Below the pieces are notes generated by a model. It had not been told where the DNA came from and ran no database searches. It worked only from the letters and a program-made list of their open reading frames with translations. This document shows, piece after piece, positions 11,087-46,459 of a stretch of DNA of 64,000 nucleotides (within the stretch, counting starts at the first letter, position 1; each line of letters starts with the position of its first letter). The stretch lies in sequence record MW650886.1, one strand, 5' to 3'. The position numbers were made by a program, and so were the translations under genes. This stretch comes from Escherichia phage vB_EcoM-ZQ1.

Positions 11087-11893
11087 ATGAATTTACCATC
11101 ATTGCCCAGAACAGAAAAGACATATAAAAGCGACTTTTGGCCTACTGTGATCAAATATCGCGCCTTTACTGCAGGGCAACAAACTTTATTACTTCAGGTG
11201 TCAGATCCGCAAACGCCGATTGAAGAACGCGCGGCCATGATGGAGAGTCTCTTTAGCGAGTGTGTAAATGCAGGCGCACCTTTCAGTAAACTGCCAATCG
11301 GCGTTGTTGAGGAAGTGTTCATCCGCATGCGCATGATCTCCATCGGTGAATTGATGAAGATTCGCTATAAATGCAATAATCAGATTGAAGAAACGATCGA
11401 TCTGGGAGATGGTCAAGAAAAGCACCAGATGGTTCCCTGTGAGCAGGAACTGACTCTACCTATCCCGTTGAACAACGTCAAATGCATTGCTCAGGACGGC
11501 TTCCGGGAGACGTTTGACCTGCCAGGTGGATATCACCTCAAGATGCGCCAACCTTCCTTCTCGGACGCTACGGCACTGTCTGATGCTGCAAGCGTTGAGA
11601 TGATGCTGGCCACCTTTATCGACTGCCTGTACGATGATGACGGTCAGGTGTGGAAGGTTGAGAATCCTGAAGAAATCGGAATCACTCCGGAAGAGGCTAC
11701 TGAGCGCCGCCGTGTGAAAGAAGCGTTTGTTGAGTGGGTGAAGGATAACATCGAATCAGATGTTATTGACAGCATTACGAAGAACTTCTTCCACAAAATA
11801 CCGCGCATCCACTACAAGAGTTCGATCAAGTGTCCGAAATGTGGTAAGGATCACAAAATCGAATTCAATAGTATTAATGAAATTTTCATTTAA
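11087..11893 (+). CDS. hypothetical protein with C-terminal zinc ribbon, immediately upstream of the gp5-like spike gene
   Basis: ATG MNLPSLPRTEK preceded by GGAG; C-terminal CPKCGKDHK; the listed ORF starts earlier on a non-ATG codon. Confidence 0.5.
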   Translation: MNLPSLPRTEKTYKSDFWPTVIKYRAFTAGQQTLLLQVSDPQTPIEERAAMMESLFSECVNAGAPFSKLPIGVVEEVFIRMRMISIGELMKIRYKCNNQIEETIDLGDGQEKHQMVPCEQELTLPIPLNNVKCIAQDGFRETFDLPGGYHLKMRQPSFSDATALSDAASVEMMLATFIDCLYDDDGQVWKVENPEEIGITPEEATERRRVKEAFVEWVKDNIESDVIDSITKNFFHKIPRIHYKSSIKCPKCGKDHKIEFNSINEIFI

Positions 11894-12042
11894 TGTTTGA
11901 AACTGATTTATTATCCTACTTCGTGATGTGTGATGAATTGAAGTTACACGGCTATAGCATATTTGAAATCAACGAGTCGATGCCATGGCATCTTGACTTG
12001 TTAACCGAAGCCCTCAAGGTCAGGTTGTCTAAGAAACAGTAA
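11893..12042 (+). CDS. small hypothetical ORF (49 aa)
   Basis: TAATG-coupled to the previous gene (MFETDLLSYFVMCDELKLHGYSIFEINESMPWHLDLLTEALKVRLSKKQ), followed directly by an intrinsic terminator; below the ORF-track size cutoff. Confidence 0.25.
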   Translation: MFETDLLSYFVMCDELKLHGYSIFEINESMPWHLDLLTEALKVRLSKKQ

Positions 12043-19843: not shown

Positions 19844-20638
19844 TTAACTGAAACTCTTGTATGCTGCTGCGAGCTTCTTGTCGTACTGGTTCTTGGCATA
19901 CGCCGGACCATTATAGCGCCGTGCAAATTCAGACCAGTTCTTGTCCTTCAGAGCCTTCCAGAGCTTGGCGTCAGCCTTGATGAACTTCACGAATGCCATC
20001 AAATGAGCACGTTCTCCTGTCAGGAAGTCGTTGAACATCTCCTTGGCGTTGGCATATCCACAGACCTGGCAGTTGAATCCCATGATCTGGAAGAGACCGT
20101 AAGAGGCGCTCTCGTACGCACAATCCTCATCGATGTTGATGGCCGCATGAAGTCGATCCAACTCCGCGTCGCCTCCCGTGTACCCGCCTGCGGAAGGACT
20201 GACCAACGTCGGGTACATATGTCCCATGGCATTCGCCCGAGCCTGTCCGAACTTCGCCATCAGCTTCTTATACATGATGTGACGCTCAAATAATGTCTTG
20301 ATCTTACCTGACTTGGTGAAGCCCGTGCCGCGCGACTCAACCTGATTCACCGCCTTGACAGAGGCAAGGTCAACACCCAGATCATTAGCAGCATCAATCA
20401 GGTCTGACTCAGTTAAATGATCCTGATGGGCGTCTCCGGCGTTGCGAATAGCATAGGAGGTCTTTGGACCCACGATACCATCAATGACAAGCCCCGCACC
20501 CGCCTGAACAGTCTTGACGGCGTTCTCTGTTGCCTTACCAAAGATGCCGTCAGCGACGAGGGTGAAGCCGATTTTGTTGAGGCTATCCTGAAGTGCCTTC
20601 ACTTCAGTACCACGGTTGCCAAATTTTAGAATGGCCAT
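19844..20638 (-). CDS. endolysin (N-terminal peptidoglycan-binding domain, C-terminal muramidase-like domain)
   Basis: PG_binding_1-like N-terminus (GNRGTEVKALQDSLNKIGF...DGIFGKATENAVK); listed start is TTG, re-set to ATG MAILKFG with GGAGG SD. Confidence 0.55.
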   Translation of the reverse strand: MAILKFGNRGTEVKALQDSLNKIGFTLVADGIFGKATENAVKTVQAGAGLVIDGIVGPKTSYAIRNAGDAHQDHLTESDLIDAANDLGVDLASVKAVNQVESRGTGFTKSGKIKTLFERHIMYKKLMAKFGQARANAMGHMYPTLVSPSAGGYTGGDAELDRLHAAINIDEDCAYESASYGLFQIMGFNCQVCGYANAKEMFNDFLTGERAHLMAFVKFIKADAKLWKALKDKNWSEFARRYNGPAYAKNQYDKKLAAAYKSFS

Positions 20639-20700
20639 AAGAAAATACCTCCACAATGAATGTAGAGGTATTTAAAGTGAAAGTGAACTGACTTTGAGGA

Positions 20701-28044: not shown

Positions 28045-28683
28045 TTACGGCGTCGGATTCACAACCGGAATGTGGGATCGAATACCTGCGATGATGTCCT
28101 TCAGCCGAGGATTCCATCCACCCACCAAACGGGGGAGAGCGATAGCGCCAGGCTGGACCAAAATGATGTCGCTGCCTGTGATATTGTGCTGAGGGAACTG
28201 AGCAAGGTACTGCTCCATGGCGACACCCTCATCAATCAGAACAGGACCGACATCAGATGACGCGTAGGTTGCACCCAGACCGTCAACGCCCCATGCCAAG
28301 ATACCCCAGTCAGGGATGTTGGCTTCAGATGTGATGGTGAATCCAAACACGGTGTTCAGCGAAGTAAAGGAATAGACATCGTGGGTGATGTCATACACCA
28401 GATACCCCTTGGCCAGCATATCGGCAAAGATCGCGTCCGTATCGCCAACAGCCGGAGTCGGCACAGTAAACAACAGCTCGCCATCAGGAGGAGCAGGATA
28501 CGTGCCGAGGGCATAGAGGCACCATGCATCAATGCACTTCTTAATGAACGCCTCTGGCGCGACATAATCAGCAAGGCGAACCGTACCTGAGTACTCTGAT
28601 ACGATAATGCCTTCCTTCGCACCCTGTAGAGCAATGAAGACCAAGATATGTTCATATCCGGCCTGAGATGGAGTGATGTTCAT
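28045..28683 (-). CDS. hypothetical protein
   Basis: Start re-set to MNITPSQ (TAATG overlap with the upstream gene). Confidence 0.45.
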   Translation of the reverse strand: MNITPSQAGYEHILVFIALQGAKEGIIVSEYSGTVRLADYVAPEAFIKKCIDAWCLYALGTYPAPPDGELLFTVPTPAVGDTDAIFADMLAKGYLVYDITHDVYSFTSLNTVFGFTITSEANIPDWGILAWGVDGLGATYASSDVGPVLIDEGVAMEQYLAQFPQHNITGSDIILVQPGAIALPRLVGGWNPRLKDIIAGIRSHIPVVNPTP

Positions 28684-29297
28684 TATCTTGTCCTCTTCAG
28701 TTTCTCTATTGTGTGCTTGTTCATGGCGATCACCTGAGGATCTACCTCGGAGATGGTCCGGCCTTCGAAAGACACACATTTCTGAAGATATTTAGCTTTC
28801 TTCACGACGTCGGCAGCATAAGCGTTCGATGCAGGATTACGGGCGAAGCCAGCATTGTAAGAGGAGAGGGATTTGCGGATATTCTGATTGTGATAGGTCA
28901 GCCAGAACTGCATCTCATCGAGGGCGGCTTGCGCGGCATATTCTTGGTCGGTCAGCAACTTTATGGCGACATTGGCATAGCACTTGCGATTCTTACAACC
29001 TTCGCGATCACCAACTGTCTTCACCTTGTTCTGAAAGGCTCCCATGTTGGCCGCCTTGAGACCGTATCGCATTGACACTACATCTTCACCAGCGCGGCTC
29101 TCTCGCCAAGATATGGCGGCCAGAGTGTAGCCAAGATCTTGTGTCTTGCCTACGTGATAGGCGGTTGCCATCGTATTAAGTTGTTGCTCGGAGAAATTAT
29201 AAACACATTGACTTGTATTTTGGGAAGCGTGCACATTCCCGCTGGCAATGGTAAAGGTCACGGACAAGGCCATGGCCTTCAACGTTGTCATCGTCAT
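28683..29297 (-). CDS. secreted lytic transglycosylase-like protein (SLT domain)
   Basis: Signal peptide MTMTTLKAMALSVTFTIASGNVHA; AISWRESRAG...GAFQ resembles the SLT catalytic ES...GLMQ motif. Confidence 0.45.
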   Translation of the reverse strand: MTMTTLKAMALSVTFTIASGNVHASQNTSQCVYNFSEQQLNTMATAYHVGKTQDLGYTLAAISWRESRAGEDVVSMRYGLKAANMGAFQNKVKTVGDREGCKNRKCYANVAIKLLTDQEYAAQAALDEMQFWLTYHNQNIRKSLSSYNAGFARNPASNAYAADVVKKAKYLQKCVSFEGRTISEVDPQVIAMNKHTIEKLKRTR

Positions 29298-29393: not shown

Positions 29394-29678
29394 TCATTCG
29401 TAGATGAGGTGGTAGGATTCCTCGATACACTCCAGCCAGCCATAGACGAACTGTAGAGGGTCATCCCATGCCGTCTTGGTCGCGACGGTAAAGTTGCCGT
29501 CCAGGATCTGCATATCTTGGTACTTGTTGAAAGCGAGTACAGCATCAACCACAATCAGGCCGCCCTGCTCAAGATAACGATTCGGAGTGACGGCCACTTG
29601 GTAACGAGGATTCCTGTGATTCCATATCTCCACAGCAATGTCACAGGAATCCTGAATTTCATCTTTGGTTTCTGACAT
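29394..29678 (-). CDS. hypothetical protein
   Basis: 94 aa ORF at the end of the gp55-gp47-gp46 operon-like array. Confidence 0.4.
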   Translation of the reverse strand: MSETKDEIQDSCDIAVEIWNHRNPRYQVAVTPNRYLEQGGLIVVDAVLAFNKYQDMQILDGNFTVATKTAWDDPLQFVYGWLECIEESYHLIYE

Positions 29679-29988
29679 ACGTTTGTCTCAGGTGTTCAGT
29701 AAAGGATTTACCCAGCTTGCGGAATAGTTTAATACGACCAATGACTTTGACGTAAACATCTCCGTGGCAGGGGCGTGGCTTACACCAGCACCCCAATACC
29801 TTCCCGTCAAGCTCAAGGAGTTCATCCTCGGTGATATCCCCTTCAATCAGGCGCACATACAGGTCTTCTTCAAACAGTTCGATACAGACGCCTCGTCCAT
29901 GGTCTTTGACCTCAAATGGGTTCCCCCATTTACCAGGCCGACCAATGTAGACGTCATATGGCTCCTTCTTGAAGTGGACGACTTTCAT
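29659..29988 (-). CDS. hypothetical protein (DUF4326-like, GNPF / CWCKP..CHGD motifs)
   Basis: 109 aa; YIGRPGKWGNPF and LGCWCKPRPCHGD; family name recalled from memory. Confidence 0.4.
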   Translation of the reverse strand: MKVVHFKKEPYDVYIGRPGKWGNPFEVKDHGRGVCIELFEEDLYVRLIEGDITEDELLELDGKVLGCWCKPRPCHGDVYVKVIGRIKLFRKLGKSFTEHLRQTYVRNQR

Positions 29989-30149
29989 TTCAGGATTTGA
30001 CCTGCAAGTAGATAACAGAACCAGACAGAGAACCCGAGATACCCCAGTGCTTTCAGGTAGTTTTTCCTTTCGACTTCACGAGAAAATGCAATGATGTCAA
30101 TGATGCATGCAAAGACCAGGATTGCGAGTTTAATTTGTTCGTAGTTCAT
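29985..30149 (-). CDS. small membrane protein (54 aa), not in ORF track
   Basis: Hand translation MNYEQIKLAILVFACIIDIIAFSREVERKNYLKALGYLGFSVWFCYLLAGQILK; starts 2 nt after the gp46-like stop and ATGA-overlaps the next gene. Confidence 0.4.
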   Translation of the reverse strand: MNYEQIKLAILVFACIIDIIAFSREVERKNYLKALGYLGFSVWFCYLLAGQILK

Positions 30150-30151
30150 GA

Positions 30152-32497
30152 TCAATCCTTCTTGATAACTTCAGTCAGGCCGTTTCGCAGGCCGTAGCGA
30201 ATGTTGTGTTGGAAGTATTCCTGGAACTCCTGTTCGCGCTGGCTAATAACAAACAGGTTGTTCCCGCCGAACTTATGCTTCAACATCTCAACCGATTCCT
30301 GCACCCCGCGCTCGCTCATGTTCTCAAGGATCTCGTCCAGCACGAACAGGTTACATTGTACAGACGCCTTGAGGTTAGCCACATCGCGCAGAGCTAATGT
30401 CACAGCCAGGTTCAGACGACTGCGCTGGCCAGTAGACAGGGAGAAGATACTCTGTCCTTTGCGGCCTGCTGCGCTCATGGTGATCTCAAAGGTATCGTCA
30501 ACAACGATGTCCAGGAACATGTTGAGGGCTTCAAGATACTCGTTGATCTTGCTATTGAGGAATGGCAGATACAGGGCGATGATACGCGCCTTGGTCTGGT
30601 CATCTTTCAAGAAGAACAGCAGGTGCTGTAAGTCCTGGAGTTCTTGGTCGGCATCCTCGCGGCGCTGGTATAGATCCTCCAGTTCACCTTCCAACGCAGC
30701 GATGGAGTTCTCCAGGTCGGTGGTAGGTGTTGGCTTTACAGCCAGTTTACGCTCCAGATCGGCAATAGACGCCACGAGAGGAGCACGACGGGCTTTCAGC
30801 TCGGCGATCTTATCATCGACGGCTTTAATCCCGCTAACGGCATTCTCTCGCGTCTGTTGCAGCGACGCAGTGATGTCTTCAAAACGAACGTTCATTGCCT
30901 TACGGATGTCAAGGATCTTCTGTTGGCATTCACGGTTCAGCGAATTACACTCAATCGTGGCGACATCATGAAAACCTTGAATATCACGGCGCAGCTGCTT
31001 GATGTTGTCAACGATTTCGTCGGCCTGCTTGCGCATTGCATCAAGTTCAGCATCCAACACAGCAATGTCAGCAACCAGCTTGTCGTCCTGGGCTTTGTGG
31101 TCATCGATCAACACAGTGACTTCGGCGGTGACTTTATCCAGCTGGTCCAGCTTCGCCTGTAGATCCTGAATCCGAGGATTGTACTCGCTTTCAATGCGCG
31201 CCTTGGTATCGTCGGACACCAGTTGGGTACATGTTGGGCAAGTCCCCATGTCGTGGAAGCGCTTGATGGCCGACTGATGCCCCTCCATTTCAGTCTGGAA
31301 CTTGATACGGAAGTTCTCACCCTGCTGGCGGCGCTGAATAGCAGCGTTCAGGGTGTCCAGGTTTGTGTTGCGCTTGGTGAGCAGGGTGTTCTTGCGTTCG
31401 GCCACTGTAAAGGCGCGGTCACGCAAGACCTGAAGTTCATGCTCCGCAGTAGACACTTCGATGCGCTCATAATCATCGGCCTTTTCCTGAGCGGCATCCT
31501 TCACCGCCTGGATCTTGGCATCAAAGTCTTTCTTGACAGCCTCGATCTCTACCATGGATTCATCATGCAGGCGGCTTTCCACCGTCTTCATTTCCTGGGT
31601 GGCTTCAAACTCCACAGCCGTGAGGCGGGTGCGCTCCTCATTCTGCGCGGCAATGTCAGCATCCAGGGAATTCAGGGCTTCCTGTTGCTGTACAAGGATA
31701 TCGGCCGACTGCTGTTGGATCAGGGCGTTGGATTGCTCGATCTGCTGAAGCTGCGTCTTCTTGTTGGTGTGGTCAACAACCTTCAGTGCGCATTCGTTAG
31801 ATATAGAGTCCAGAGTTGCATTTGTCCTTTTGATGGCGGCCTTGACATCTTCGTTCATCAGGCTGAAGAAGCCCAAGTCCCAGATAGTCTCCACCATGGC
31901 GCGGCGGTCGGCTGTGTACATCTCCGTGAACGGAATGAACTTCTCTTTACCCAACACCAGAGAGTTCTCAAACATCTTCTGGTCTACACCGATGAGGTTC
32001 ACGATGTACTTGTTCATGTCGGCTTTGGCTGCTTCGTTATCGATCTGCAACCACTTGCCGTCCACCATCTGGTAGACTTCAACAAAGTCAGGTTTAATGC
32101 CACGGCGAACCTTCCATTCGCTACCACGGCAGGCAAACTCCACCTCACCCACACATTCCTTGCGGCTCTGTGAGTTAACCAGGCCTGCCTTCTTCTCCTT
32201 CTTGCTGTATGTGTCGTTGTACAGTACGAAAAACAGCAGCCATACCAGCATCGTGGATTTACCCGCGCCGTTGTCATCAGACGTGACAAGGGTGGCCGGG
32301 TTGCGCTGATAATCAATCTCCATGAACTGATTGCCGATGGAGCGGAAGTTCTTGGCGCGGCCTTTGCGGAAGGTCAGTTTGTGTGTAACAACGTTACGCA
32401 CTTCAAATGGGACTTCAACCTCGACCGGGGCGTCGGCTTCCTTCAAAAGATTACCAAATTTGGTCAAGATATCTGTGCTCTGAGTCATGTTATGCAT
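30152..32497 (-). CDS. 46: recombination nuclease ATPase subunit (T4 gp46 / SbcC-Rad50-like)
   Basis: Walker A GAGKSTML; long coiled-coil with CPTC zinc hook (MGTCPTCTQL versus T4 GGLCPTCLSQ); the start could instead be the ATG 9 nt downstream. Confidence 0.8.
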   Translation of the reverse strand: MHNMTQSTDILTKFGNLLKEADAPVEVEVPFEVRNVVTHKLTFRKGRAKNFRSIGNQFMEIDYQRNPATLVTSDDNGAGKSTMLVWLLFFVLYNDTYSKKEKKAGLVNSQSRKECVGEVEFACRGSEWKVRRGIKPDFVEVYQMVDGKWLQIDNEAAKADMNKYIVNLIGVDQKMFENSLVLGKEKFIPFTEMYTADRRAMVETIWDLGFFSLMNEDVKAAIKRTNATLDSISNECALKVVDHTNKKTQLQQIEQSNALIQQQSADILVQQQEALNSLDADIAAQNEERTRLTAVEFEATQEMKTVESRLHDESMVEIEAVKKDFDAKIQAVKDAAQEKADDYERIEVSTAEHELQVLRDRAFTVAERKNTLLTKRNTNLDTLNAAIQRRQQGENFRIKFQTEMEGHQSAIKRFHDMGTCPTCTQLVSDDTKARIESEYNPRIQDLQAKLDQLDKVTAEVTVLIDDHKAQDDKLVADIAVLDAELDAMRKQADEIVDNIKQLRRDIQGFHDVATIECNSLNRECQQKILDIRKAMNVRFEDITASLQQTRENAVSGIKAVDDKIAELKARRAPLVASIADLERKLAVKPTPTTDLENSIAALEGELEDLYQRREDADQELQDLQHLLFFLKDDQTKARIIALYLPFLNSKINEYLEALNMFLDIVVDDTFEITMSAAGRKGQSIFSLSTGQRSRLNLAVTLALRDVANLKASVQCNLFVLDEILENMSERGVQESVEMLKHKFGGNNLFVISQREQEFQEYFQHNIRYGLRNGLTEVIKKD

Positions 32498-33605
32498 CCA
32501 GTTTGTTCAGGCGTTGTTGGGCAGCATTATAGAAGTGCTCTGCCAGTTTACAGACATTGTCGGGGCGCTGAATGTTGTTCCCTGCGCGGATATCCTTCTT
32601 CAGGACTTCCACCGCATCGGTCGCCACCATCTCTTCGGTGACCTCAACCTTCTCGGCAGCAACAGTAATCGTCCGGTCGATGAAGTTGTAGTCGATACAC
32701 TTGCAGCGCTTCATGGCATCACAGAACTTTTCATAATGCTTAGCATTGTCGCGGTTCTGTACAATAACCTTAACGATTTGCCCTTCAATACCCAAGCCTG
32801 TGTTCAACCATTCCGGGTCGATCCAATTACCTTCTTCATCAGAGGACAACTTGGTGTAATCATATTCCACATAGCGGAACAGCGTCTGGTGCTCGGCGTT
32901 CGGGATAAAGATCTCACCACCACGCATGTCGTCTACATAGAAGCCACGGTTAGTGCCGTCTTTGTAGTCTTCCCAGTTCAGGTGATATGGAGTCCCAATA
33001 TATTGAATGTTACCTTCCATCGAACGGGTATGGAAATGCCCCGTGTCGACCCTGGTAAACTTGGAAAGCAGAGCAACGTCGATCTGACCGTGATCACAAG
33101 TAGAAGACTGGTACATTTTGAACCCCGCCAGCTCCAGATGCGCAAAACAGTACTCGGCGTCTGTATCTTGTATCGCTTTAATAGACGCATCATAGTTCTC
33201 CTTGTTGATCCAAGGTAGCAGTAGAGTCTTGACACCCTCGATCATCACTTCGGTCGGTTCGCTGTAATAGCAGTACACATCCGGGTCGAGTTCGTTCAGG
33301 TAGGATGGCCAGTTGATGCGGTTGGACTCTTCCAGGGTGATGTCATGGTTGCCCACGATGCCATTCCACTTGATACCAGCCGCTTTCAATGCAGGGGTGA
33401 GTTCATCCTTCAGCCAGTCTTTGTCACGACCGTACATGAATTTGCGGACATCAAACGTATCACCGAACTGCCAGACCTCTTTGATATCAGAGTCGGCAAG
33501 TTCAGGAATGAAATAATTGATGAGATAGTTCTTGATGAAGTCGCGAACGTATCGAGAACCATTACGGCTCCCGATATGCAGATCACCAATTTTAGCAATC
33601 GCCAT
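32490..33605 (-). CDS. 47: recombination nuclease subunit (T4 gp47 / SbcD-Mre11-like)
   Basis: GDLHIG, GDTFDVRK and IVGNHD phosphoesterase motifs match T4 gp47 (GDWHLG, GDIFDVRK, IVGNHD). Confidence 0.85.
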   Translation of the reverse strand: MAIAKIGDLHIGSRNGSRYVRDFIKNYLINYFIPELADSDIKEVWQFGDTFDVRKFMYGRDKDWLKDELTPALKAAGIKWNGIVGNHDITLEESNRINWPSYLNELDPDVYCYYSEPTEVMIEGVKTLLLPWINKENYDASIKAIQDTDAEYCFAHLELAGFKMYQSSTCDHGQIDVALLSKFTRVDTGHFHTRSMEGNIQYIGTPYHLNWEDYKDGTNRGFYVDDMRGGEIFIPNAEHQTLFRYVEYDYTKLSSDEEGNWIDPEWLNTGLGIEGQIVKVIVQNRDNAKHYEKFCDAMKRCKCIDYNFIDRTITVAAEKVEVTEEMVATDAVEVLKKDIRAGNNIQRPDNVCKLAEHFYNAAQQRLNKLDA

Positions 33606-34333
33606 TATTCTGTTTCTCCTTCGGTTTCGTCTAGGCCGAATTGGGTATTGCCGAAGTCCTGATCTAAATTTTCTTCGGCCTGCGCTGGTGTCGTATTCTT
33701 AGCCTGCGCCATGTATTGAAGTATACCTTTCGCAATCTTTTTATTCGATTCTGCGAGACGAGCTGCCTCCACCTTCTCTCGTTCCTTCTGCCTTTGAGCG
33801 TCCTTTTTGTTCTCAAAGTTGCCGATACGTTCACGGAAGTCCATGCCAATTCCTGTAGCATCAACAAAGATCTCTTGTTGGAAGTCGGGGTCATCTGCCA
33901 GGCCTGCGAACCCACCCGCCTCTTCAAATGAGCGCAATTTAATGTACGTGTGCTCTTCTTCGATGTTCAGTTTACGAGCAAATGAGCGATCAGCACACAT
34001 GGTCACCCAAGAAAAGAAGTTGATCTTCCCTTTCTTACCGATGTGGTCGACGTCAAAGGTGTGGAGGTAACGCAGGATGTTGACGATTGCTTCAGAGACC
34101 ATGTCTTCACGGAAGGGATAATCGCGATAGTTGTAGCGGGTACTCATCTTGGTGATGATGCGCTGGACCTGCAGAGCAACATAGTTGGGGATCTTTGGAA
34201 GCCTGGTGCCCTCAGCAAGTGCTTTCTTGCGGGCGGGGATCCAATCACGAAGGATACTAATGACACGCTCGTTGTCTTCGTCCGTGAAATATTTGACGAC
34301 ATTCTCCCCTCTGTCCACGAAGTTCATTCCCAT
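33605..34333 (-). CDS. 55: late-transcription sigma factor (T4 gp55-like)
   Basis: RYNYRDY..EDMVSEAIVN..YLHTFD resembles T4 gp55 RFNFSGY..EMIADGIEA..GLHNFD; directly upstream of gp47/gp46 as in T4; acidic C-terminal extension. Confidence 0.6.
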   Translation of the reverse strand: MGMNFVDRGENVVKYFTDEDNERVISILRDWIPARKKALAEGTRLPKIPNYVALQVQRIITKMSTRYNYRDYPFREDMVSEAIVNILRYLHTFDVDHIGKKGKINFFSWVTMCADRSFARKLNIEEEHTYIKLRSFEEAGGFAGLADDPDFQQEIFVDATGIGMDFRERIGNFENKKDAQRQKEREKVEAARLAESNKKIAKGILQYMAQAKNTTPAQAEENLDQDFGNTQFGLDETEGETE

Positions 34334-34344
34334 TATGATAGCCC

Positions 34345-34872
34345 TCAGATACCGATAAATTCATCAAAAGATCCAACAACCTTCTTCACCGAGATCTTGT
34401 CATTCTCAATCAGGAAGTTGCTGTCGTTTTTGGCTGCTGTAGCCCAGTCATCGGCAAGTTCGTTGCCTTCGTGCCCCGCATGACCCTTAACCCATTTTAG
34501 TTCAACATCACAAATTGAACAAACGAGATCATAGATTCTGAACAGATCTTTGATGAGTTCAACGTTCTTTTCTGGGAAACCCTGATACTCCCACTTCGTT
34601 CGCCATTCAGTGACACTCTTGATGGCATATTGACTGTCAGACCAAATTGTTGCCTTTGGTATTCTGCGCTCACCCTTTCCTGAGAATGCCCACAGTAGCT
34701 TCAATGCGTTGGTCACACCCAACAACTCGGCGATATTGTTAGTGGACGGGGGAGGTAGATGACCGAAGAACACCTTCCATTGCATACCCGTTATTGGCCT
34801 GATGACAAATGCCCAGCCTGCGGCCTGGTTGGTCTTCGGGTTAGAACCCCCGTCAGAATAAATTTCTATCAT
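34345..34872 (-). CDS. rnhA: ribonuclease HI (bacterial RnhA-type)
   Basis: IEIYSDGGSNP...AGWAFVI and C-terminal WVKGHAGHEGNELADDWA match the RNase HI catalytic core; start re-set to MIEIYSD. Confidence 0.8.
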   Translation of the reverse strand: MIEIYSDGGSNPKTNQAAGWAFVIRPITGMQWKVFFGHLPPPSTNNIAELLGVTNALKLLWAFSGKGERRIPKATIWSDSQYAIKSVTEWRTKWEYQGFPEKNVELIKDLFRIYDLVCSICDVELKWVKGHAGHEGNELADDWATAAKNDSNFLIENDKISVKKVVGSFDEFIGI

Positions 34873-34874
34873 GA

Positions 34875-34882
34875 TATAAATA
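34875..34882 (+). promoter_or_regulatory. T4-type late promoter motif TATAAATA
   Basis: Exact TATAAATA 35 nt upstream of the ATG at 34918. Confidence 0.5.
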
Positions 34883-34917
34883 TCCCAAACTGGTTTTATA
34901 GAAAGAGGAATGAAACT

Positions 34918-35685
34918 ATGGCACCCCGCGCATATCGTTTCAGTCTCACCGCCCCGCAGATTGAGCAATTGCTCCTCTCTATCTATGATGCTATCAAGTC
35001 AGAAGATATCATCTATGATTATGCTGCAGGTGGGACTGCTGGACAAGTCGCAGCAGCGTCTGCTGTCAAGAACATGTGGTTGAAGCTCAACGAGATGGTG
35101 ACAGGCCAAGGTCTCAAAGATGCCATCAACGATGCAGAAGACAGCAACGTGTTCACCGACTATTATAAGTCTTTACTGGATCGCGAAGGCTGGAAATTTA
35201 TTGGATCGCCAGCAGATGAACTTCAGCGAGGCGACATCGATACCTCGAACTTCAAAGGTGGTGAGGTCATTCTACTTCAGAAGAACGCTTCGGGCAACCC
35301 AGAATTCCAATACTGGAAGCGAACCCCTGTTGCTGGGGGTGATCCTACCTTTGCATGGGCTTCGGTCTATGAAGGGAACTCCAATGATTCCAGCATAGAG
35401 ATTCCCGTGGTTGGCACCAGCGTACTCAAGGACATCCCCAAGGCACTCTTCCATATGATCGAGTTCAGAGTACATGTCTACGATGAGACACTGGGTCATT
35501 GGCAAGACACCGACGGGAAGGTAGGGTATCGTGGCGAGGATCTGATCTACAGTGTCTACAACCATATTCAGACCAAACCTCTCGCCACCATTGACTTCAG
35601 CCAAGATACGGACAATATGACGGTTTCTGTGACGTCGTTGGAACCGAATGTCAAGTGCCGTCTGTCCTTCGTTGCGGGTTACTAA
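34918..35685 (+). CDS. hypothetical protein, probable late gene
   Basis: ATG MAPRAYRF with AAGAGGAA SD; TATAAATA 35 nt upstream; the longer listed ORF begins inside the divergent RNase H gene. Confidence 0.5.
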   Translation: MAPRAYRFSLTAPQIEQLLLSIYDAIKSEDIIYDYAAGGTAGQVAAASAVKNMWLKLNEMVTGQGLKDAINDAEDSNVFTDYYKSLLDREGWKFIGSPADELQRGDIDTSNFKGGEVILLQKNASGNPEFQYWKRTPVAGGDPTFAWASVYEGNSNDSSIEIPVVGTSVLKDIPKALFHMIEFRVHVYDETLGHWQDTDGKVGYRGEDLIYSVYNHIQTKPLATIDFSQDTDNMTVSVTSLEPNVKCRLSFVAGY

Positions 35686-44094: not shown

Positions 44095-46296
44095 TTAGAT
44101 TTTGATTTCTTTCTCTGTCAGTTCGGCAGTGACCTTGTACTTCACGCCATCCACTTCAACTTCCATGGTGGACTCTTCCAGGTCGAGATCGGTGAACCAG
44201 CCATGGCCAGCAACGATACCATAAACCACTTTAGACAGCGTCTTGTTCAGGGCACGGACTTCGGTGATGGCCGCCTTGGCAGCAGCGTCGATCCAGTTTT
44301 CGATCAGCTGTTTCTGTAAGGCTTCAGGCACGGCAGTGATCATAGGAGACTTCACGAATGCTTCGTACTCCTTCAGCGCATTGGCGATGAACAAGTCACC
44401 AGCATTGAGTTTCTTGTTCTCGGCAATCTTCTTCTGTACCGCTGCGATAGACGGTAGAGATGAAGCGCCAGCGATCTTCACGTTCAGCTCACGGCTCATG
44501 TAGAAGTCGGTAGACTCTTTGGTCTCAGTCTTCGGTGAGAATCCGTAATCGCGGATGCCGTAGGAGGACAGGAACTCGGCCGCCTCAGCGCCGTACTGTA
44601 CTGCCAGGCCTTTGGCGTTACCCTTACCAACCAGGGCGTCTCGATAGAACTTCAGCACCTTCTGCTTGCCTTTCAGGGCTTCCAGACGGACATTATCCGC
44701 AAAGAACTGAGCAGCACTGATGTTCTTGACCATGGCGCGGTTGACCAGCGGTACGCTTTCCAGGTTCAGGACAAACACTTCCGGACCACCAAACACGTGG
44801 ACGCCCATTTCGATCAGCTTCTGTACAACTTCGATATCAGCCTTGAACGGTAGAGTCTTCACGTTAATGATACCGTCTTTGACGATGGTGTAGTTGCGCC
44901 ACTGGAAAGTATCCAGTTCTTCAGGCAGGCCAAACTTCTTCTGTGCGAATTCAGGCACAGCCACAGTACCGTGTTGAATTGTACGCACGCTGATGTTCGG
45001 GCGCTCGGAGTTATAGACCAAATCGCTGATTGGCACAACACCCAGGTCGTTGGTAGGTTCGAACGTCGGGTTCCACTCTTCGTGTTCTGCCAGCTTGAGA
45101 GCCAGGGCTTTACGCTCTTCTTTGGACTGAGCATTCGCGATCTGTTCTGCCAGCTTGTCTTCGGTGTCGTCGGTTTTCTGCACAGTACCGCGCCCGATGC
45201 TCTTATAGGAGAACATCGGATGCTTGGTAGCAACAGGCACACCAGCTTCAGCCAGGTACGTCAGCACGTCAACGACGGTCGTCGCATCTTCAGCCGGAAC
45301 CAGGTCATAGTCAATACCGTCAACGCCGCGCAGCTGGTCATCAACGATGGCCTGGGTCAGATCGTTCTTGATGTTGGAGTAGTCCTGCTTGGTGAAGCAG
45401 TTGCTGTACTGTTTGATGAAGCGAACGTCGCCCGTCTTCTTCAGCGCAGCCCAAACCAGATCTGCGTCCATAGTGTGTACGCCGTAGAACGCCAGCACAT
45501 ATGCCGCCTGGATGTCCGTCAGGCTATCCATCTGGTCGATCATGTTGGGGTTTACAACCCACAGCTTGGTGACGCTCTCAGGGATGCTCACGTGGCCGAT
45601 AGGATGGTCTTCATCCGGCTGTACCGCCAGCACAGTTGCTACGCCGTTTTCAACATAGATGGCGTGGGTGTATAGCAGAGGCACATCAACAACCACCTTC
45701 GGCACTGATGACTTCAGCACGTTTTCCAGTTCGGTCTGGTATTCGGTCTGACCTTCGGCAAACACGTGAGTTGCGCCAGAGCGCTCGGACATCTGCGCCA
45801 GCAGTTCACGGTTACAGTGCCAGCCGTATTCGATGAAAGTAATGTTATCGAACGCGGAAGGAAGTTTTTCGGCGGTATCCAGGATTTCATTGGAGTGCCA
45901 GCAGTTGTCATAACCATCGGTCATGAATGCCAGGTTGTTGACGTAGCCAGGTTTCTTCAGGTCACGCGCAGTATCCATCGCCAGTTTCAAAGGCTCAACA
46001 AAGCCAGTACATCCGGACGGTTGCAGGAAGCGATCGATCAGTTTGTTCAGCTCGCTCAGGTCAGACGCAGCACTAACCTGGCGGCCAGCGAACACAGTAC
46101 CAAAGTCTCCTTTGGAGGAGAAATACAGAACGCTCACAGTGTCTTCCGGTTTCACCAGGGAAGGCAGGTTCTCCTTCAGATGCTTACGGACTTCAGGGAG
46201 CGCACGGTACATAGAGCCGGAAATGTCTACAACGATTACATGGTTGGACGGAGCAGCAGTCGCAACCGCATTCTTAAATTCTAATGATTCAATCAT
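44095..46296 (-). CDS. von Willebrand factor A (vWA, MIDAS) domain protein
   Basis: N-terminal VIVVDISGSMY (DxSxS MIDAS) ... MTDGYDN; start re-set to MIESLEF. Confidence 0.6.
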   Translation of the reverse strand: MIESLEFKNAVATAAPSNHVIVVDISGSMYRALPEVRKHLKENLPSLVKPEDTVSVLYFSSKGDFGTVFAGRQVSAASDLSELNKLIDRFLQPSGCTGFVEPLKLAMDTARDLKKPGYVNNLAFMTDGYDNCWHSNEILDTAEKLPSAFDNITFIEYGWHCNRELLAQMSERSGATHVFAEGQTEYQTELENVLKSSVPKVVVDVPLLYTHAIYVENGVATVLAVQPDEDHPIGHVSIPESVTKLWVVNPNMIDQMDSLTDIQAAYVLAFYGVHTMDADLVWAALKKTGDVRFIKQYSNCFTKQDYSNIKNDLTQAIVDDQLRGVDGIDYDLVPAEDATTVVDVLTYLAEAGVPVATKHPMFSYKSIGRGTVQKTDDTEDKLAEQIANAQSKEERKALALKLAEHEEWNPTFEPTNDLGVVPISDLVYNSERPNISVRTIQHGTVAVPEFAQKKFGLPEELDTFQWRNYTIVKDGIINVKTLPFKADIEVVQKLIEMGVHVFGGPEVFVLNLESVPLVNRAMVKNISAAQFFADNVRLEALKGKQKVLKFYRDALVGKGNAKGLAVQYGAEAAEFLSSYGIRDYGFSPKTETKESTDFYMSRELNVKIAGASSLPSIAAVQKKIAENKKLNAGDLFIANALKEYEAFVKSPMITAVPEALQKQLIENWIDAAAKAAITEVRALNKTLSKVVYGIVAGHGWFTDLDLEESTMEVEVDGVKYKVTAELTEKEIKI

Positions 46297-46459
46297 CGTT
46301 ATTGCCTTCTTCAGGGTTGTCTTCGGCCTCACCTTCCGGCTTGGCCAGCATATATTCAAGGAAGTCGCGATTGAGTTCAATCTGACTCATCAGCGTTTCG
46401 CTCGGTTTAAAGCTGAGGTCGATGGTGTCTAGACCAGCTTTCTTGAATGGTTCTGTCAT
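46289..46459 (-). CDS. small acidic hypothetical ORF (56 aa)
   Basis: Hand translation MTEPFKKAGLDTIDLSFKPSETLMSQIELNRDFLEYMLAKPEGEAEDNPEEGNNDD; stop overlaps the vWA start; below the ORF-track cutoff. Confidence 0.25.
   Translation of the reverse strand: MTEPFKKAGLDTIDLSFKPSETLMSQIELNRDFLEYMLAKPEGEAEDNPEEGNNDD

Follow-up and report, generated by a model that had tools for sequence, protein, structure and literature searches.

A small, apparently dispensable membrane protein gene in a polymorphic slot between gp46 and DUF4326 in the Agtrevirus-like phage vB_EcoM-ZQ1

The closest described counterpart of the small gene treated here is orf00117 of Shigella phage Ag3, which is the same gene (phrog_34593) and whose record text reads "hypothetical membrane protein, two TM" (a Phobius/TMHMM note). 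Its product is alike in length and in slot (gp46 to NrdA.1/DUF4326) and shares 96% amino acid identity with the vB_EcoM-ZQ1 protein, the two amino acid differences between them amounting to nothing substantive. The 2011 Ag3 paper placed gene 117 (54 aa) among five small membrane proteins that "could" be the holin, with neither holin nor lysin detected in that phage (PMC3121705). No holin is known for ViI-like phages in general (PMC3184105; PMC9686305), so that any small membrane protein encoded by them becomes a tempting candidate. A second described family, phrog_35473 (Maynard gp106, MK-13 gp129, and EP75), goes by the name "holin" and shares with the vB_EcoM-ZQ1 gene the slot, the ATGA overlap with DUF4326, the two transmembrane helices, and nearly the length (53 aa), but has no detectable sequence similarity to it, and its name is a putative label. 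Class II holins and pinholins such as S21-68 of phage 21 resemble the small protein in size and in having two transmembrane helices. The nearest functional analogy is to T4 Imm, a small early inner-membrane superinfection immunity protein with two hydrophobic segments that is non-essential. The vB_EcoM-ZQ1 protein likewise appears to be a small, non-essential, early inner-membrane protein with two hydrophobic segments, but it is shorter (54 aa versus 83 aa) and has no sequence similarity to Imm, which belongs to phrog_1039 (PMC9409062).

We analyzed a 64,000-nucleotide stretch of the Escherichia phage vB_EcoM-ZQ1 record MW650886.1, referred to below as the window. The source phage is an Agtrevirus-like member of the Ackermannviridae (ViI-like): the 1.4 kb around the small ORF shares 97.7% identity with Escherichia phage A221 and 97.6% with AV101, and the same 1.4 kb matches 270 phage records, which are Ackermannviridae except for a few odd ones. 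Two phage records, OR844944.1 (filed as Enterococcus phage Efm 3-10, 38.5 kb) and MN871475.1 (filed as Pseudomonas phage Pa-sanjiao, 158 kb), carry an Enterobacteriaceae Kuttervirus-type locus at 94-100% protein identity and are probably mislabelled or contaminated submissions. The small ORF is labelled "putative membrane protein" in both A221 and AV101, and 25 phage records carry it intact at 92-98% amino acid identity. A preliminary description, made from the letters of the window, had called it an unlisted gene; this is true of the ORF list on which that description drew and untrue of the databases, where relatives have annotated the gene ever since Ag3. As such, it is already known as an uncharacterised Ackermannviridae membrane protein. 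The features of the locus are as follows.

29985..30149, minus strand: 54-aa ORF plus stop, MNYEQIKLAILVFACIIDIIAFSREVERKNYLKALGYLGFSVWFCYLLAGQILK, slot allele A (translation; phrog_34593 match; annotated in Ag3, A221, and AV101)
30156..30160, minus strand: Shine-Dalgarno AAGGA, 6 nt 5' of the small-ORF ATG, within the final gp46 codons (read from the sequence)
29985..29988, minus strand: ATGA overlap of the small-ORF stop with the DUF4326 start, a junction common to all six allele types
30152..32497, minus strand: gp46-like (SbcC-like) recombination nuclease subunit, upstream gene (annotations in relatives)
29659..29988, minus strand: DUF4326 (T4 NrdA.1-like), 109 aa, downstream gene (PF14216, E 1.6e-23)
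29394..29678, minus strand: 94-aa gene (phrog_4165), final member of the overlapping chain
30084..30128, minus strand: predicted transmembrane helix 1, residues 8-22, LAILVFACIIDIIAF (hydropathy 2.95; AlphaFold helix 3-27, pLDDT about 90)
30051..30083, minus strand: polar loop, residues 23-33, SREVERKNYLK, four K/R, net +2 (cytoplasmic side predicted from the positive-inside rule)
30006..30050, minus strand: predicted transmembrane helix 2, residues 34-48, ALGYLGFSVWFCYLL, with an invariant FCYLL motif (hydropathy, alignment, and AlphaFold)

The family to which the product belongs is narrow. The small protein matches phrog_34593 with E 1.3e-40, residues 1-54 falling on profile positions 1-54, and a PHROG search returned no other family, while Pfam and NCBIfam scans of all slot alleles described below gave sub-threshold noise only. 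A word search of 5.8 billion proteins retrieved five clusters at 90% identity, all of the same small family and in the same slot, and an HMM search run in full against 1.84 billion representatives retrieved four 50%-identity representatives, the most distant of which again sits between DUF7175 and DUF4326. With Foldseek, the AlphaFold hairpin had one significant match among viral structures, the allele-B protein of phage heyday; the remaining matches were generic helical hairpins and uninformative.

The junctions agree with the preliminary description, whose 54-aa minus-strand translation at 29985-30149 is identical to ours. The start codon ATG occupies 30149-30147 and the stop codon TGA 29987-29985. 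The gp46-like gene ends in a TGA at 30154-30152, two nucleotides (TC) ahead of the small-ORF ATG, and the DUF4326 ATG (29988-29986) is overlapped by the small-ORF stop, so that both the start 2 nt past the gp46-like stop and the ATGA overlap are seen in the sequence. The proposed overlapping chain of gp55, gp47, gp46, the small ORF, DUF4326, and the 94-aa gene proved correct when all of its junctions were measured, with overlaps of 1 nt (gp55/gp47), 8 nt (gp47/gp46), 4 nt (small ORF/DUF4326), and 20 nt (DUF4326/94-aa gene). The position of the ORF implies that it is translated from a polycistronic gp55-gp47-gp46 message via its own Shine-Dalgarno sequence, and the other slot alleles have an AAGGA or GAGGA at identical spacing. 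The SD-like AGG ahead of the DUF4326 start is weak and poorly spaced, and it is therefore plausible, judging by this geometry, that DUF4326 is translated by reinitiation after the small ORF (translational coupling). We would also point out a TTG two codons 5' of the ATG (30147-30155, minus strand) that overlaps the gp46 stop and would yield MIMNYEQ...; allele E likewise starts with MIM. The resemblance to the dual-start motif of holins is superficial, the extra codons add no charged residue, and the feature is probably not meaningful.

As regards timing, the coding strand from 29900 to 35500 contains no match with one or fewer mismatches to TATAAATA, the T4-type late promoter motif, and there is no sigma-70-like site directly upstream of the small ORF. 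The gene therefore looks co-transcribed with gp55/47/46. Its operon position and the missing motifs suggest early or delayed-early expression together with the recombination nuclease operon, not late expression. No relevant transcriptome or study of temporal expression in Ackermannviridae came up in a literature search.

The product is predicted to be a 54-aa hairpin of two hydrophobic helices of membrane-spanning length, in line with the small membrane protein originally proposed, and its gene is a genuine conserved one. AlphaFold2, given an eight-sequence alignment of alleles A and B, returned a hairpin whose helices span residues 3-27 and 31-53, at a mean pLDDT of 89. The loop SREVERKNYLK holds four of the six K/R residues of the protein, and the C-terminus past the second helix consists of six residues (AGQILK, with one Lys). 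By the positive-inside rule, the loop would be cytoplasmic and both termini periplasmic. In the A/B family, the invariant residues are E4, K7, A9, F13, I16, D18, F22, A34, Y37, G39, F44-C45-Y46-L47-L48, and I52. D18 is an acidic residue inside the first transmembrane helix; the Asp is retained in P0007 and P0008, the remotest relatives that we found, and allele D also has an Asp in its first helix.

A 54-codon open frame by itself would be weak evidence of a gene, since random sequence stays open over that length with a probability of (61/64)^54, or about 0.075 (our own calculation), and it is conservation that settles coding. The preliminary description had named conservation of the frame in relatives as one of the points on which its claim would stand or fall, and the ORF is indeed intact across relatives. 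Among GenBank phages, allele A differs by 3-4 synonymous and 2-5 non-synonymous changes, counts too small for dN/dS, and single allele-A comparisons, with few substitutions each, give values as high as 0.87. We settled this question via a more divergent metagenomic copy (L099) together with alleles B and D.

vB_EcoM-ZQ1 versus metagenomic copy L099: 83% amino acid identity, 9 synonymous and 10 non-synonymous changes, dN/dS 0.26
Flanking genes, vB_EcoM-ZQ1 versus L099 (reference): dN/dS 0.03-0.12
Allele B, heyday versus Kamild: 72% nucleotide identity, dN/dS 0.23
Allele D, SS9 versus L018: 83% nucleotide identity, dN/dS 0.085
Allele A versus allele B: 52% nucleotide identity, dN/dS not computable (pS 0.82, saturated; pN 0.38), mostly third-position changes

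These sequence comparisons indicate purifying selection on the small gene, with dN/dS of 0.09-0.26 in the informative comparisons; relative to the flanking genes, the L099 pair shows the constraint to be relaxed. The other two same-strand frames are full of stops. A chance or decaying open frame without function could draw on the roughly 7% chance of 54 open codons in random sequence, on the few substitutions within allele A and the single-comparison dN/dS of up to 0.87, and on the dispensability of the gene discussed below. However, none of the 25 allele-A records breaks the frame or alters its length or junctions, the Shine-Dalgarno sequence is conserved, every allele keeps the two-TM architecture, and the informative dN/dS values are those just given. 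A functionless frame is thus hardly credible, conservation effectively refuting it, and we rejected the chance ORF.

The similar ORFs to which the preliminary description had pointed elsewhere in the window both exist and match full-length PHROG families, but they encode hydrophilic proteins and not membrane proteins. The 49-aa ORF at 11893-12042 (plus strand), 3' of a gp26-like hub gene, matches phrog_9633 over its full length (E 3e-39) and weakly matches a "baseplate hub assembly catalyst", and the 56-aa ORF at 46289-46459 (minus strand) matches phrog_8656 over its full length (E 1e-31). Separately, the 244-aa ORF at 28045-28779 (minus strand) probably starts at the internal Met33 (MNITPSQ...), which abuts the stop of an SLT-like gene; the DUF7270 profile covers residues 33-244, and the protein annotated in relatives has 212 aa.

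Reading the interval from the gp46 stop to the DUF4326 start in GenBank relatives and IMG/VR contigs, we found at least six allele types of 52-57 aa, each with two hydrophobic segments, a short loop, and an ATGA end. In tblastn searches, each allele was placed once per record.

Allele A, MNYEQIK..., 54 aa: vB_EcoM-ZQ1, Agtrevirus, and some Kuttervirus (25 tblastn records)
Allele B, MIPEPYK..., 54 aa: Kuttervirus and Dickeya Limestonevirus, with a 102-aa DUF7175 gene before it (12 tblastn records)
Allele C, MTNVLIAT..., 53 aa: Maynard, Marshall, EP75, and MK-13 (9 tblastn records)
Allele D, MNWDHLW..., 57 aa: SS9, Det7, and many Salmonella Kuttervirus (40 tblastn records)
Allele E, MIMESEAL..., 53 aa: Klebsiella Taipeivirus and Serratia IME250 (11 tblastn records)
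Allele F, MKVVVAIT..., 56 aa: Klebsiella phage May (4 tblastn records)

In shuffle-controlled alignments, homology is clear for A and B (z 22) and marginal for A and D (p about 0.005), and alleles C, E, and F show no detectable relation to the others, with A versus C at z 2.1 falling within the shuffle range. Annotation of these genes is uneven: the small ORF is left unannotated in 3HA11 (L015, 1492-1656) and in Klebsiella phage 0507-KN2-1 (2325-2483), and in the SS9 RefSeq record (L005, 1330-1830) the DUF4326 CDS is extended upstream to 131 aa across an unannotated allele-D ORF.

The slot can also be without a small gene. In K751 and L028-30, gp46 is followed directly by DUF4326, and in L020 and L025 DUF7175 stands alone in the slot. 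In the LIMEstone type (Ds20CZ, which is L009, 1500-1773; and L031), a deletion that covers both the small gene and the 5' part of DUF4326 joins the first ~9 codons of DUF7175 to mid-DUF4326, and in the PhaxI type (PhaxI, which is L098, 1493-1613; and L040-42), an independent deletion of the same kind left the last ~43 codons of DUF4326. As two independent deletions truncated it, DUF4326 is dispensable too in PhaxI- and LIMEstone-type phages. In our IMG/VR sample, the small two-TM gene is present in 10 genomes of the family and absent from 9. The slot is polymorphic, and with so many viable relatives lacking the small gene, we infer that it is dispensable.

Allele A also appears to have moved between genera. 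Its DNA is 95-98% identical wherever it is present, including in the Kuttervirus phages allotria and pertopsoe. In those two phages, the 3' 900 nt of gp46 is only 72% identical to vB_EcoM-ZQ1, and DUF4326, which is alignable in allotria, is 87% identical. Synonymous divergence there is 0.08 for the small ORF, versus 0.47 for DUF4326 and 0.70 for gp46, and a 50-nt sliding comparison places a local identity peak of 92-100% across 30151-29951. The simplest reading of this pattern would be a recent cassette exchange between genera; less probably, allele A has so few synonymous changes because of a constraint at the nucleotide level.

Two further genes bear on a role in lysis.

19844-20656, minus strand: probable endolysin with a PG-binding N-terminus and a muramidase-like C-terminus ("putative peptidoglycan binding protein" in AV101)
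28683-29297, minus strand: SLT-like protein, 204 aa; hydrophobic, signal-like segment at the N-terminus, MTMTTLKAMALSVTFTIASGNVHA (phrog_600; T4 vs.1 homologue; weak match to SLT lytic transglycosylases)

The endolysin-like gene, flanked by phoH and by small genes for soluble proteins, stands by itself, and there is no classical lysis cassette there. The 28683-29297 gene is named variously in relatives as "RegB site-specific RNA endonuclease", "MltF-like transglycosylase", or "Vs.1", and the RegB name looks wrong.

If the small protein were the missing holin of ViI-like phages (class II or pinholin-like, with two transmembrane segments) or another component of lysis timing, it would accumulate in the inner membrane and then trigger to release or activate a muralytic enzyme. 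Its small size and two transmembrane helices, by hydropathy and in the AlphaFold hairpin, would suit that role, as would the want of an identified holin in these phages (PMC3184105; PMC9686305), the listing of gene 117 among the five Ag3 candidates (PMC3121705), the secreted SLT-like protein encoded three genes downstream (0.7 kb), and the dual-start-like MIM... form from the upstream TTG. It is typical of holin slots that unrelated sequences share one conserved position, and because holins, too, are typically encoded by small, polymorphic membrane protein genes that keep their place, the pattern counts against a conflict role of the kind proposed below. Allele C moreover bears the name "holin" in Maynard, RefSeq, and phrog_35473. 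We traced this label to the Maynard GenBank record, from which it was propagated to the RefSeq entries of MK-13, Marshall, and EP75 and to phrog_35473; the Maynard paper contains no supporting statement and offers no basis for it, and we do not accept it. S21 holins have a hydrophilic, highly charged cytoplasmic C-terminal domain, whereas the small protein has six residues after its second helix and no charged cytoplasmic tail, and its predicted topology, N-out/C-out, would be unlike that of S21-type holins. Also unlike class II holins, it has no adjacent endolysin, the endolysin-like PG-binding/muramidase gene being about 9.3 kb away with no adjoining TM gene, and the motif search found no late promoter within 5 kb upstream. 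The putative upstream start brings no charged residue, the selective constraint is relaxed compared with the flanking genes, and the slot is without a small TM gene in lysis-competent relatives (PhaxI, the LIMEstone-type Ds20CZ and L031, and K751) as well as in L040-42, L028-30, L020, and L025; with each allele placed once per record by tblastn, a copy elsewhere in those genomes is unlikely. Taken with these points, a holin or lysis-timing role is doubtful, and we infer that the small protein is not the holin of this phage.

Two other roles fit the membrane location. A host-takeover factor would inhibit a host inner-membrane process (division, transport, or a protease) to aid replication, and the probably early operon, the membrane hairpin with a conserved intramembrane Asp suited to binding a partner helix, and a dispensability and variability like those of many early phage accessory genes all speak for it. 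This role is nevertheless unlikely, there being no homology to known inhibitors, and unrelated alleles in phages of the same hosts are hard to square with one conserved host target. Less probable again, and in our judgment quite unlikely, is a membrane partner or anchor that localises the coupled DUF4326 enzyme, or gp46/gp47, to the inner membrane. The ATGA overlap with DUF4326 is kept in every allele, and the PhaxI-type and LIMEstone-type deletions each extend from the small gene into the 5' part of DUF4326, but simple adjacency also predicts such co-deletion, and the unrelated alleles would all need to bind the same highly conserved DUF4326. What led us to set the anchor aside is that DUF4326 often stands alone, be it directly after gp46 (K751, L028-30), after DUF7175 (L020, L025), or in many phages outside the Ackermannviridae.

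The reading that we favor, tentatively and with a probability of roughly 45%, is that the small gene encodes an accessory factor of the inner membrane, early and dispensable, that serves in conflict with the host or with other phages, and not a holin. We propose it because the gene is small, membrane-embedded, probably early, dispensable, replaced by other alleles, exchanged horizontally, and confined to a single phage family. The protein would bind a membrane component of host or phage by helix-helix contact within the inner membrane, its helices packing via the conserved intramembrane Asp18 and the FCYLL face. Binding might then alter an envelope property, with Imm-like superinfection exclusion or immunity as one example and protection from a host defence that acts on the membrane as another, and different family members would fill the cassette slot with different small two-TM proteins or leave it empty. 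The neighborhood is of a similar kind, with DUF7175 present or absent in the same slot beside DUF4326, and a role in virus-host conflicts, in which it would process ADP-ribose-derived phosphates, has been predicted for DUF4326 (PMC9503650). PHROG, Pfam, and NCBIfam searches found no sequence similarity to T4 Imm or to known exclusion or anti-defence proteins. A more far-reaching version, which we regard as a long shot, is that the slot is a diversity-generating cassette whose alleles form a new exclusion/immunity class, each with its own specificity, or that the alleles are the long-sought holin/antiholin components of ViI-like phages, with other genes substituting where they are absent.

For annotation, the present case confirms an ORF of fewer than 60 codons as a real gene. 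ViI-like phages encode many uncharacterised small membrane proteins and have no identified holin, and what is added here to the existing record is the documentation of the slot polymorphism, the dispensability of the small gene, and the case against the propagated "holin" label. Being polymorphic, exchangeable, and dispensable, the slot between gp46 and DUF4326 offers a well-defined locus for questions of exclusion, host range, or lysis timing in these phages.
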